Shown one piece after another: positions 2,846 through 32,124 of a stretch of DNA of 32,124 nt. The DNA is taken from assembly GCA_022866015.1 (NCBI GenBank), contig JALHTX010000140.1, positions 1 through 32,124 of the forward strand, in the 5' to 3' direction. A program made the position numbers and the translations under genes. Position 1 is the stretch's first letter; every line of letters begins with the position of its first letter. Source of the DNA: Thermoplasmatota archaeon (lineage in GTDB: Archaea; Thermoplasmatota; E2; DHVEG-1). A model generated the notes under the pieces. The model was not told where the DNA came from. It saw only the letters and a program-made list of their open reading frames with translations, and did no database searches.

Positions 2846-3961
2846 TTAGAGTAACTTAATCTTAATCACAATCATTTCTTCAGATGTTGCAAAGTTTCCT
2901 GCTTTATCAAAGGCTTTTGCTTTTATTCTATATATTCCAACTCCTTTTTCATCCCAAGTCCAGTTGTAAGGTTCATTGTTCAACGTTGCTTTTGTTTCAT
3001 TATTAATGAGAATTTCCACATAGCCCATACCAACAAATTCAGGATCACTTGCATTGATAGTGATATTAATGCGTCCAATAATTAAAGGATTCATTAATGG
3101 CCATCCAAATAGTTCTTCATTATTCAAGTATATCATAGAAAGTTTTGGTTGTTCAATTGAAACCTCAGGAGGTGTTTTATCTAGTTCATATTTAAAAAGC
3201 TGAATTGCGGTATCTACATCATAAACAGGCTCACCATTTTCTTGATATGAAAATTTATCACCGAAGTTCGATATTATCCATAGGAACCAATCACCTTGTG
3301 GATCATCATGACTTTGAATAGATATCCATCCTTCTCCATTACTAAGTTCAACGGATGTTGGTAGTATATATTCAAATTTTATGTGTTCATGAGATTTTGT
3401 TGTTTCATTCCAATATATTTCAGTATGTGTTATTTGCACATCTTCTGCAGATACATCAAAAGAAGCAATTTTGTTCTGTGGAGGCGCATTTGTTTTTTCT
3501 GATGGATCATCATAGAATTCTATGTAAAAATTCATTCCTTCAGGATCTCCATCAATAAATCCACCACCATCAAAGTATAAACAGAGACCCCACCAGGTAA
3601 TTTTTTCAATTTTTCCATTTACATCATAGAGATTTTCATACATTTTATAGCCATCATAACCAGCGTTTTTTTCAGATGTGAATGCTCGCTGTCCTTCATC
3701 TGGTGATGCTGGTGGTTGATCAAAAATGTTTACATATCTCCCATAATCATCCAAGGATTCCACAATTTCAGCATCAGCATTATAGATTTCATCGTTGCTA
3801 TTAACAAATTTATTTTCATTTGAAATTCCGGCTATTTCATTTGTTTGATTTCCATTGATACTTGGTAGTATTCCTGCTCCTAAAAACATACCTACAATTA
3901 CAAATATAAAAAATTTTCTTCTTTCTATCTTATACATACAAACTTCCCCCACATTTTCCAA
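2846..3961 (-). CDS. Secreted or membrane-anchored protein with a C-terminal Ig-like/beta-sandwich region. The likely true start is ATG 3937.
   Basis: ORF track. N-terminal hydrophobic segment KFFIFVIVGMFLGAGILP. The C-terminal INITINASDP...YRIKAKAFDKAGNFATSEE resembles bacterial Ig-like surface domains. Confidence 0.55.
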   Translation of the reverse strand: MENVGEVCMYKIERRKFFIFVIVGMFLGAGILPSINGNQTNEIAGISNENKFVNSNDEIYNADAEIVESLDDYGRYVNIFDQPPASPDEGQRAFTSEKNAGYDGYKMYENLYDVNGKIEKITWWGLCLYFDGGGFIDGDPEGMNFYIEFYDDPSEKTNAPPQNKIASFDVSAEDVQITHTEIYWNETTKSHEHIKFEYILPTSVELSNGEGWISIQSHDDPQGDWFLWIISNFGDKFSYQENGEPVYDVDTAIQLFKYELDKTPPEVSIEQPKLSMIYLNNEELFGWPLMNPLIIGRINITINASDPEFVGMGYVEILINNETKATLNNEPYNWTWDEKGVGIYRIKAKAFDKAGNFATSEEMIVIKIKLL

Positions 3962-30430: not shown

Positions 30431-30769
30431 ATTAGGAAAAAATGTCCTGAGTGCAGTTCTAAAGCAGTAAAACTATACCTAAATAAAAGTTTCGAAGGAA
30501 AAAGAGCATGGATTCCAACAGCCTGGACTTGCACAGAATGTGGATACACATACAATGTTGCTGCAGAAACCCTGATGTATAAAATTGGAAATGAGGCATA
30601 TGATGAAAAATATCATGAAAAATGCCCAAAATGCAGCTTAAACCTTGTTAGATTATATCGGCATATAAATCCAAAACATGGTAAACAAAAATGGGTTTCA
30701 ATTGGATGGTACTGCACTCGTTGTAAATATGTATGGATGGATAAAAAAACAAAAGAAGAATCAAAATAA
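30431..30769 (+). CDS. Tandem double zinc-ribbon protein. Only the second ribbon (from ATG 30575) has a canonical start.
   Basis: The frame is open from 30431: IRKKCPECSSKAVKLYLNKSFEGKRAWIPTAWTCTECGYTY...MYKIGNEAYDEKYHEKCPKCSLNLVRLYRHINPKHGKQKWVSIGWYCTRCKYVW. Confidence 0.4.
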   Translation: MRKKCPECSSKAVKLYLNKSFEGKRAWIPTAWTCTECGYTYNVAAETLMYKIGNEAYDEKYHEKCPKCSLNLVRLYRHINPKHGKQKWVSIGWYCTRCKYVWMDKKTKEESK

Positions 30770-30979: not shown

Positions 30980-31078
30980 ATGAAGCGTAGTTCAAGAGTC
31001 TGGAAGAAAAAGGGTAAAATGCGATGGAAATGGCGAAAGAAACGAATGAGACGTGAAAAAAGAGCAAGAAGGAAATAA
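30980..31078 (+). CDS. rpl41e: Ribosomal protein L41e-like, 32 aa
   Basis: Hand translation: MKRSSRVWKKKGKMRWKWRKKRMRREKRARRK. Matches my recollection of the archaeal L41e pattern RSSR.WKKKG.MRWKW.KKR.RR.KR. AGAGGA SD upstream. Confidence 0.65.
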   Translation: MKRSSRVWKKKGKMRWKWRKKRMRREKRARRK

Positions 31079-31092
31079 CGATAAATATTTAC

Positions 31093-31231
31093 GGGGGTAT
31101 GGTGTAACCCGGCATCATTGTGGGCTCCAGTTAGGAATGATTAAAAGAGGGTCATCTGAAAGGTGATGAGTAACTGGAGCGATGACCTAAGAAGAGACCC
31201 GCCGATCTGGGTTCAAATCCCAGTACCCCCA
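31093..31231 (+). tRNA. tRNA-Trp (anticodon CCA) with a 66-nt intron at the canonical 37/38 position
   Basis: Acceptor GGGGGTA/TACCCCC; D-arm; anticodon stem GTGGG (31120-31124) / CCCGC (31198-31202); loop CTCCAG|intron|A; T-arm CTGGG-TTCAAAT-CCCAG; discriminator A. Confidence 0.85.
31131..31196 (+). ncRNA. tRNA-Trp intron containing a box C/D guide RNA module
   Basis: C AUGAUUA 31137-31143; 12-nt spacer; D' CUGA 31156-31159; 3-nt spacer; C' GUGAUGA 31163-31169; 12-nt spacer; D AUGA 31182-31185. Both spacers are complementary to the tRNA itself. Confidence 0.7.
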
Positions 31232-31262: not shown

Positions 31263-31466
31263 ATGATGAAAATTAATATTAAAAACTTCAATTTTTATAC
31301 AATACTATCACTTTTGTTTTTAATAGCGGGAATAGGAATCTGGTTAATCTGGATAATAAGATATGGTGTAGTATATGATATAGGAATATACTCTCTAGCA
31401 ATAGTATTTATTATACCAGGTATAGTCGGTTTTATCCTATCGCTCATGGATAAAAAAGAAGATTAA
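31263..31466 (+). CDS. Small two-TM membrane protein
   Basis: ORF track. Two hydrophobic helices. Confidence 0.4.
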   Translation: MMKINIKNFNFYTILSLLFLIAGIGIWLIWIIRYGVVYDIGIYSLAIVFIIPGIVGFILSLMDKKED

Positions 31467-32124
31467 ATCATCTTCCAAGTTAGTATTTGATTCTTTGTTG
31501 CACTTACTTCATCTAAACGTTTGGTAGGAGTATTAACAGGAGAATTTTTAACAATATCTGGTTTTTCATCTGCAATTTTTATAAGTGTTTCAATGTATTT
31601 ATCAAGGTCTTTTTTTGATTCAGATTCAGTAGGCTCGATCATAAGTGCTTCTTTTACGATAAGCGGAAAATAAACTGTTGGCGGATGCAGACCGTTGTCT
31701 AATAGTCGTTTTGCAACATCCATTGCACGAATATCTTTTTCTTGTTTTAGTTTTTCACAGCTTAGAACAAACTCGTGTTTTCTCAAGTTTTTAAATGGCA
31801 TTTCGTATTTACCACTATCTAGTATCTTTTTCTTCATATAATTAGAGTTTAGGACAGATATTTCTGATGCCTGGCAAAGACCATTTCCACCCATCATAAG
31901 TATATAAATATAGGCTTTCAAAAGTACCGAGAAATTACCATAGAAACCTTTTATTTTTCCAATAGAATCAGGTGCATCATAATCAAAGATATAGTCTCCA
32001 TAATATGCAAAATTGTTGTCATGACAACAGGAATCTTTATCATTCTTAGAGTGTCGAGTACAAGTGACTCCTAACACATCAACAGATTTCAAAATGCCAT
32101 TGGGATCATTGAAATCTCCCATCA
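31463..32124 (-). CDS. gcvPB: Glycine dehydrogenase (decarboxylating) subunit 2, C-terminal part. The N-terminus lies off-window to the right.
   Basis: GNGLCQASEISVLNSNYM, HEFVLS, DVAKRLLDNGLHPPTVYFPLIVKEALMIEPTESE. The frame stays open to the window edge upstream of the track ATG 32122. Confidence 0.9.
   Translation of the reverse strand, partial: MGDFNDPNGILKSVDVLGVTCTRHSKNDKDSCCHDNNFAYYGDYIFDYDAPDSIGKIKGFYGNFSVLLKAYIYILMMGGNGLCQASEISVLNSNYMKKKILDSGKYEMPFKNLRKHEFVLSCEKLKQEKDIRAMDVAKRLLDNGLHPPTVYFPLIVKEALMIEPTESESKKDLDKYIETLIKIADEKPDIVKNSPVNTPTKRLDEVSATKNQILTWKMI

Follow-up and report, generated by a model that had tools for sequence, protein, structure and literature searches.

The tRNA-Trp gene and its intron

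The stretch of DNA analysed here (the window) comprises the 32,124 nucleotides (nt) of contig JALHTX010000140.1 from the Thermoplasmatota archaeon assembly GCA_022866015.1, and the element in question is the 66-nt intron of a tRNA-Trp(CCA) gene near its 3' end, which has the anatomy of an archaeal box C/D RNA and is likely a guide for the methylation of the tRNA in which it resides. When introns are allowed, ARAGORN calls tRNA-Trp(cca) at 31093-31231 on the forward strand, with a mature length of 73 nt and an intron of 66 nt; the sequence of this interval opens with GGGGGTA and closes with TACCCCCA, and removal of 31131-31196 leaves a 73-nt cloverleaf bearing the anticodon CCA. The Rfam tRNA model, run in E-value mode, gives the gene 40.2 bits and places an insert of 70 nt in its anticodon loop. 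Neither ARAGORN at its default settings nor Rfam in gathering mode reported the gene on the window, and a tRNA-Trp gene interrupted in this manner would probably escape routine annotation.

The dinucleotide AG stands at both junctions (..CUCC AG|UUAGG....GAAG AG|ACCC), which leaves the intron start ambiguous within 31129-31131 if the sequence alone is considered; the ARAGORN output places the intron two nt upstream, at 35/36. The canonical 37/38 cut was chosen because of the register of the bulge-helix-bulge (BHB) splicing motif described below. All three possible starts yield an identical mature tRNA and leave an identical nucleotide at N+5, the fifth guide position upstream of box D or D', so the concern raised in an earlier note on this DNA, that a different boundary could remove the N+5 geometry, applies to none of them.

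Read in order, the intron is ATGATTA-12-CTGA-3-GTGATGA-12-ATGA, in which boxes C and D are each one position off consensus, and everything 3' of box D within the intron is CCTAAGAAGAG. The earlier note, which was made from the letters of the sequence, had claimed the layout C(7)-12-D'(4)-3-C'(7)-12-D(4), and this layout and every coordinate given for it are correct (Table 1). It had also proposed a tRNA search with tRNAscan-SE and a box C/D scan; ARAGORN in intron mode recovered the gene, and a pattern search for the full box layout found it a single time in the window and never in 100 shuffles, one mismatch being permitted. With looser box criteria, the entire 2.19-Mb genome yielded the tRNA-Trp intron and one poor match, against zero to one in shuffled genomes. 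The archaeal C/D families sR3 and snoPyro_CD of Rfam align to the intron end to end, and the sR3 model scores it at 19.7 bits in a genome-wide search. The terminal boxes are predicted from the sequence to form a kink-turn (K-turn) consisting of the stem UUAGG/CCUAA, the loop AAU, the non-canonical pairs G.A, A.G and U.U, and a U-A pair, while the internal boxes D' and C' would form a K-loop.

Table 1. Features of the tRNA-Trp(CCA) gene and its intron (window coordinates)
Feature	Coordinates	Strand	Basis or remark
tRNA-Trp(CCA) gene, mature 73 nt, CCA tail not encoded	31093..31231	+	ARAGORN intron mode, Rfam
Exon 1, positions 1-37; anticodon C34 C35 A36 at 31127-31129	31093..31130	+	Sequence reading, ARAGORN
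Intron, 66 nt, canonical 37/38 site; box C/D guide	31131..31196	+	Sequence reading, ARAGORN, sub-threshold Rfam C/D matches
Terminal stem, 5' strand UUAGG	31131..31135	+	Pairs with 31186-31190; canonical stem of the K-turn and splicing helix h'
Unpaired A	31136	+	Sequence reading
Box C, AUGAUUA (DNA ATGATTA); consensus RUGAUGA, position 6 = U	31137..31143	+	Sequence, family conservation
C-D' spacer, 12 nt, D' guide; DNA AAAGAGGGTCAT, RNA AAAGAGGGUCAU	31144..31155	+	Sequence; N+5 (31151) faces C39
Box D', CUGA (DNA CTGA)	31156..31159	+	Sequence, family alignment
D'-C' linker AAG, 3 nt, loop of the K-loop	31160..31162	+	Varies freely among relatives: AAG, TCT, TTTG, TATG, others
Box C', GUGAUGA (DNA GTGATGA)	31163..31169	+	Sequence, family alignment
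C'-D spacer, 12 nt, D guide; DNA GTAACTGGAGCG, RNA GUAACUGGAGCG	31170..31181	+	Sequence; N+5 (31177) faces C34
Box D, AUGA; consensus CUGA, position 1 = A, pairs with U31142 of box C	31182..31185	+	Covariation
Terminal stem, 3' strand CCUAA	31186..31190	+	Covariation
GAAG, 3' strand of the central 4-bp BHB helix	31191..31194	+	Pairs with C32-C35 (31125-31128), C34.A mismatch; followed by 3' bulge A31195 G31196|A31197
Intron tail GAAGAG	31191..31196	+	Sequence reading
Exon 2, positions 38-73; C39 at 31198	31197..31231	+	Sequence reading, ARAGORN

Guide pairing, covariation and the splicing fold

The D guide forms ten contiguous Watson-Crick pairs, N+2 to N+11 (31180 to 31171) with 31124 to 31133, a target consisting of G31-G37 and the first three intron nucleotides, and its N+5 nucleotide (G31177) faces C34 (31127). 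As the duplex includes intron nucleotides, the substrate would be the unspliced precursor. The D' guide pairs through N+3 to N+7 (31153 to 31149) with G31196, A38, C39, C40 and C41, followed by an A.G mismatch at N+8 and a G-C43 pair at N+9, and its N+5 nucleotide (G31151) faces C39 (31198). Both duplexes had been described in the earlier note, the first as ten pairs across the exon 1-intron junction with C34 at N+5 and the second as six pairs and one mismatch with 31196-31202 and position 39 at N+5, and in both the coordinates are exact. The note had further named 34 and 39 as the known targets of the tRNA-Trp intron guide, in agreement with the studied systems, for which PMC4090602, PMC6313347 and PMC7994747 describe methylation at Cm34 and at Um39 or Cm39. 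A search of the genome for better targets of either guide returned only chance-level 9-11-mers in unrelated contigs.

Comparison was made at two depths. Among 61 sampled kin genomes, the tRNA-Trp gene including its intron was matched in 54, and in 43, which range over the genus, family, order and class of the window, the match was full-length with 81-99% identity. Across the phylum, a motif consisting of GCTCCAG, 20-120 nt and CTGGAGCNNTGA was found in its strict form in 201 of the 401 sampled Thermoplasmatota genomes. Since GCTCCAG, CTGGAGC and the TGA of box D are required by the pattern, their invariance is built in, and the positions free to vary are i1-i4, N+9 to N+12, box C, box D position 1 (D1) and, in the D' half, every position. 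Parsing gave 120 distinct phylum introns, 102 of them with a complete 3' tail, and the window's family supplied 45 distinct introns; counts out of 120, 102 and 45 below refer to these sets. A single scan of named genomes with TAACTGGAGCGMTGA returned many chance bacterial matches, and about 35 of its 120 loci are true tRNA-Trp introns. Identical or near-identical introns occur in contigs of metagenome-assembled genomes (MAGs) labelled Thermoplasmatota, Thermoplasmata or Thermoplasmatales archaeon, and more distant versions in MAGs of Methanomassiliicoccales and Methanomethylophilaceae. The strict motif is scarce or absent in certain well-sampled families (f39, 1 of about 27 listed genomes; f27, 0/9; f16, 0/9; f32, 2/58; f14, 3/36), in which either the guide has diverged or the intron is lacking.

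Within the window's family (45 introns), positions 2-6 of box C are invariant, with position 1 conserved at 98% and position 7 at 93%; boxes D' and D are invariant, and box C' is 98-100% conserved except at its first purine (60%). The D guide UAACUGGAGC is likewise invariant, and the GGGTCAT (GGGUCAU) of the D' guide is 98-100% conserved, with variation at its N+12, N+9 and N+8. N+12 of both spacers is conserved at 43-62%, and the D'-C' linker varies freely. The earlier note had held that orthologous introns lacking conserved boxes or spacers would tell against a guide; in the family, boxes and guide cores are kept at 98-100%, and the pattern as a whole is what would be expected of a working guide RNA and not of a spacer.

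Positions that the search pattern leaves free provide a further view of the D-guide duplex. In the 120 introns, N+9 is U-A in every case, N+10 is U-A in 91, U.G in 22, G-C in 6 and C-G in 1, and N+11 is A-U in 118 and G-C in 2, whereas N+12 is paired in 13%; in the class alignment the D-guide helix is 99.6% paired. Pairing thus stops precisely at N+11, as the earlier note had placed it: compensatory changes are seen at N+10 and N+11, whereas N+12 is random.

The second set of covarying positions is position 6 of box C and position 1 of box D (C6:D1), which together form the K-turn pair 4b:4n in the numbering of PMC6009581. The earlier note had proposed that the two off-consensus nucleotides, U6 and A1, are a correlated replacement of G-C by U-A and had suggested that orthologues be compared for covariation at these positions. 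Such covariation is found: the pair is U-A in 80 of the 120 introns, G-C in 20, A-U in 4 and C-G in 1, so that all four Watson-Crick types are represented in a total of 105, a number reached by none of 10,000 shuffles (mean 67). In 12 of the 15 introns with a non-Watson-Crick combination, D1 is instead complementary to position 7 of box C, as if the pairing had slipped by one nucleotide. In much of the phylum most introns have U-A, U6/A1 being held in 12 families, and its presence in introns from Methanomassiliicoccales contigs means that it is not confined to the window's lineage. Both U-A and G-C are found within the window's class as well as beyond it; if the class is a single lineage, U-A and G-C would have been exchanged independently at least twice, in addition to changes that led to the A-U and C-G states. 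The compensated U6/A1 pair is thus real, lies within the known variability of K-turn pairs and is not peculiar to the window; as the Watson-Crick character of 4b:4n is kept, the variant is a compensated one and not a product of decay, which bears out the note's view that it speaks for function.

The terminal stem behaves similarly: the three pairs adjoining the K-turn loop are Watson-Crick in 99, 95 and 81% of the 102 introns, with exchange between G-C and A-U. When a nested fold consisting of the acceptor, anticodon and T stems, the BHB/splicing helix, the terminal stem and C6:D1 was evaluated on a 45-sequence class alignment, 94.2% of its positions were paired, against 38-52% when the partners were slid, and seven pairs had changed on both sides.

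The same introns define the splicing motif. In the central BHB helix (102 introns), C32-G(-3) is present in 102, U33-A or U.G(-4) in 100 and C35-G(-6) in 101, while position 34 forms a pair in 12 and a mismatch in the other 90 (C.A 72, C.U 17, C.C 1). The bulges consist of A G|A38 on the 3' side and A36 G37 (|U) on the 5' side. The relaxed BHB built on CTC/GAG in the earlier note is rejected, since it lies in a different register and the comparative data favour the standard one (C32-G, U33-A, C34.A, C35-G). The note had also placed TTAGG/CCTAA in the splicing structure as an alternative to the guide fold; it does belong to the splicing structure, as the outer helix, but it is also the terminal stem of the guide and is therefore common to both folds. 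The mutual exclusivity that the note proposed holds for the D-guide:target duplex and the splicing helix, which cannot share one molecule because both use 31124-31133. This exclusion in cis agrees with the action in trans, from another pre-tRNA or an excised intron, that PMC4090602 describes. As a separate observation, the C34 mismatch in the BHB helix (31127 with 31192) is conserved across orthologues, and by eye, among the introns listed, those with canonical G6/C1 boxes nearly all have C34-G there.

Proposed function and alternative explanations

The intron is best explained as a functional box C/D guide orthologous to the pre-tRNA-Trp intron guide of Haloferax volcanii and Pyrococcus, a reading to which we assign a probability of roughly 0.88. 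Its anatomy, conservation and covariation are established here, as are the genes of the proteins that such an RNA would need: the host genome, 83% complete, encodes fibrillarin (263.6 bits), Nop5 (147.7 bits) and L7Ae (99.8 bits), together with a splicing endonuclease of the two-domain type (102 bits), and each score exceeds its Pfam cut-off. Assembly of a ribonucleoprotein, methylation, action in cis or in trans and splicing are what we infer for this RNA. L7Ae would bind the terminal K-turn and also the internal D'/C' K-loop, after which Nop5 and fibrillarin would assemble on the intron RNA. The D guide would pair with pre-tRNA-Trp, in cis or on another molecule, and fibrillarin would 2'-O-methylate C34; the D' guide would pair across the 3' splice junction and with the 3' anticodon-stem strand, leading to methylation of C39. 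The BHB fold would take the terminal stem as its outer helix, allowing the endonuclease to cut at 37|38 and the exons to be ligated.

This proposal draws on known systems. The H. volcanii pre-tRNA-Trp intron guide is described in PMC4090602, PMC7994747 and PMC3326292 on the basis of Clouet d'Orval 2001, Bortolin 2003 and Singh 2004. There, as here, the 37/38 intron of tRNA-Trp(CCA) is itself a double-guide C/D RNA, in which the D guide spans the exon 1-intron junction and addresses C34, the D' guide addresses position 39, and the nucleotides needed for guide pairing are also claimed by the splicing fold. The two differ in length, with 105 nt given in PMC3326292 for H. volcanii and 66 nt here, and in the D' product: H. 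volcanii has Um39, whereas position 39 is C here and the product would be Cm39. The terminal boxes AUGAUUA/AUGA of the present intron also set it apart.

Pyrococcus sR50, a tRNA-Trp intron sRNA (PMC7994747), and sR3 share with the present intron a length of about 55-65 nt, 12-nt spacers and the combination of K-turn and K-loop. The consensus of sR3 (RF01133) contains the same two guide cores, CGGGUC and UGGAGC, and differs in its canonical AUGAUGA/CUGA boxes; the model also matches Methanocaldococcus jannaschii and Methanosarcina acetivorans, and from the cores and those matches RF01133 is likely the same tRNA-Trp intron RNA in other Euryarchaeota. In Sulfolobus solfataricus, a 65-nt circular tRNA-Trp intron (PMC3326292) is of similar length and complementary to 34 and 39, but its consensus C and D boxes are unrecognisable, whereas all four are recognisable here; the excised Sulfolobus intron is stable (PMC3326292), a property that the present one may share. 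A survey of Pyrobaculum and Pyrococcus C/D sRNAs found that pair type varies at K-turn positions beyond the two G.A pairs (PMC6009581), and the U-A at 4b:4n fits this documented variation; in contrast to the survey, one orthologous RNA has been followed here through a phylum, so that exchange among G-C, U-A, A-U and C-G is seen directly.

Several observations weigh against a functional guide. The scores of the Rfam models remain below their gathering thresholds (sR3, RF01133, 30.6 bits against 41; snoPyro_CD, RF00095, 27.4 against 45), and the naked RNA is predicted, at minimum energy, to fold into an internal hairpin in which box D and half of the D' guide are masked. In the window's family the D' duplex comprises five contiguous Watson-Crick pairs, the G-C43 pair and A.G at N+8, and this shortness makes Cm39 less secure than Cm34. 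The assembly contains no rRNA genes, so the guides may have further targets.

The last two points lead to the alternative that survives best, namely that only the D guide to C34 is active, the D' half being a vestige or having some other RNA, for example rRNA, as its target, a possibility that we regard as unlikely. The D' duplex is weak in the window's family (N+1 G.U, N+2 mismatched, N+3 to N+7 paired, N+8 A.G, N+9 paired), 79% of family introns have A at N+8 of the guide, pairing of the outer D' positions falls to 67% in the class alignment, and a D' guide aimed elsewhere would be compatible with an assembly that lacks rRNA genes. The family nevertheless keeps the core GGGTC opposite G(-1) and A38-C41 at 98-100%, boxes D' (CUGA) and C' (GUGAUGA) are both intact and the spacer has 12 nt, and N+5 falls on position 39, just as it does in the systems studied by experiment (PMC4090602, PMC6313347). 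Further, as judged by eye in the 120 introns, the third nucleotide before box D' is C with introns that end in G and U with those of Methanomassiliicoccales type that end in A. A guide acting at both positions is therefore preferred, with Cm39 less certain than Cm34.

A somewhat less probable alternative concerns the box variant alone, and proposes that A1 of box D is kept for the intron-internal, self-masking hairpin GGGUCAUC (31149-56)/GAUGACCU (31181-88) and not for the K-turn pair. Energy minimisation yields this hairpin (-14.2 kcal/mol, z-score -2.9), which is 97.8% paired in the class alignment, where G:C replaces U31155:A31182 in step with the change at box D position 1. Its other positions are fixed by the guide, box D or the terminal stem, however, so their pairing carries no information. 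Across the phylum the relation between the spacer end and D1 breaks down (U-A 66, G-C 20, G.A 25 of the 120 introns) and two extra hairpin pairs are lost outside the class, while C6:D1 stays Watson-Crick in 105 of the 120 despite these failures. On account of the 25 G.A combinations the hairpin was rejected as a general cause of covariation at D1, although inside the class it is retained as a minor alternative. Much of the helix can be traced to the resemblance between box D with its adjoining stem (UGACC) and the D' target (GACCC), and the hairpin is probably a by-product.

That the intron is a decaying C/D relic, a mere spliced-out spacer whose odd boxes reflect decay in a 31% G+C genome, is strongly disfavoured and very improbable: two terminal-box positions are off consensus, all Rfam C/D scores are below gathering, and intron loss is tolerated in H. 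volcanii according to PMC4090602 (citing Joardar 2008), but boxes and guide cores are conserved while adjoining nucleotides vary, the U6/A1 state is common to 12 families, and compensatory changes occur at three interactions.

A more speculative proposal extends the preferred reading of a functional guide. In the window's class, the U-A pair at 4b:4n, the conserved C34.A mismatch and the hairpin GGGUCAUC/GAUGACCU may change together as a tuned conformational switch, which would act as a lineage-specific kinetic checkpoint in the maturation of tRNA-Trp; we consider this improbable. If it were true, the weakened K-turn and splicing helix and the self-masked D box would determine the sequence in which L7Ae is loaded, C34 and C39 are methylated and the endonuclease cuts.

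Neighbouring loci and significance

An open reading frame (ORF) of 32 aa, rich in lysine and arginine (MKRSSRVWKKKGKMRWKWRKKRMRREKRARRK; 30980-31078, forward strand), ends 14 nt 5' of the tRNA-Trp gene. It resembles ribosomal protein L41e, through the motif WRKKRMRR.KR; Pfam and NCBIfam searches of this ORF gave no match. The same peptide lies directly upstream of tRNA-Trp in at least 14 of 27 family loci according to a crude ORF scan, a lower bound since the scan missed the window's own locus, and its co-transcription with tRNA-Trp is possible. Upstream of it, at 30575-30769 (forward strand), a 64-aa ORF with two CxxC pairs appears zinc-ribbon-like and has no significant family match in Pfam or NCBIfam. 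On the reverse strand, 31463-32122 encodes the C-terminal part of glycine dehydrogenase subunit 2 (GcvP2_C, 103 bits), which runs off the end of the window and is ordinary.

Elsewhere in the same genome, an intergenic candidate for a stand-alone C/D sRNA was noted (G000:C82, about 3862-3921, reverse strand, equal to L225 262-326, reverse strand) with the layout GUGAUGA-11-CUGA-13-GUGAUGA-12-CUGA and a 4-bp terminal stem. Its canonical boxes indicate that the genome uses G-C boxes in other loci. The D guide of this candidate would put C34 of a CAA anticodon loop, of the tRNA-Leu(CAA) type, at N+5; tRNA-Leu(CAA) itself was not found in the incomplete assembly. A tRNA-like sequence with a CAU anticodon (..GCGCCUGACUCAUAAGCG..), followed by an apparent long intron, lies at about 22380 on the reverse strand of G000:C375.

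Knowledge of the tRNA-Trp intron guide goes back to 2000-2001, and euryarchaeal lineages are expected to have it. The present intron is a member of this known class of archaeal methylation guides, and little about it is new in kind. The comparison of its orthologues provides a natural series of clean covariation at the fourth K-turn pair (G-C, U-A, A-U, C-G) within a single orthologous RNA, which supports the structural model and could improve covariance models of C/D sRNAs. The element has been retained almost invariant in a large, uncultured, AT-rich family of Thermoplasmatota, in which default tRNA and Rfam annotation misses the gene itself, and pattern searches that rely on RUGAUGA and CUGA will miss the tRNA-Trp intron guide in much of the phylum.

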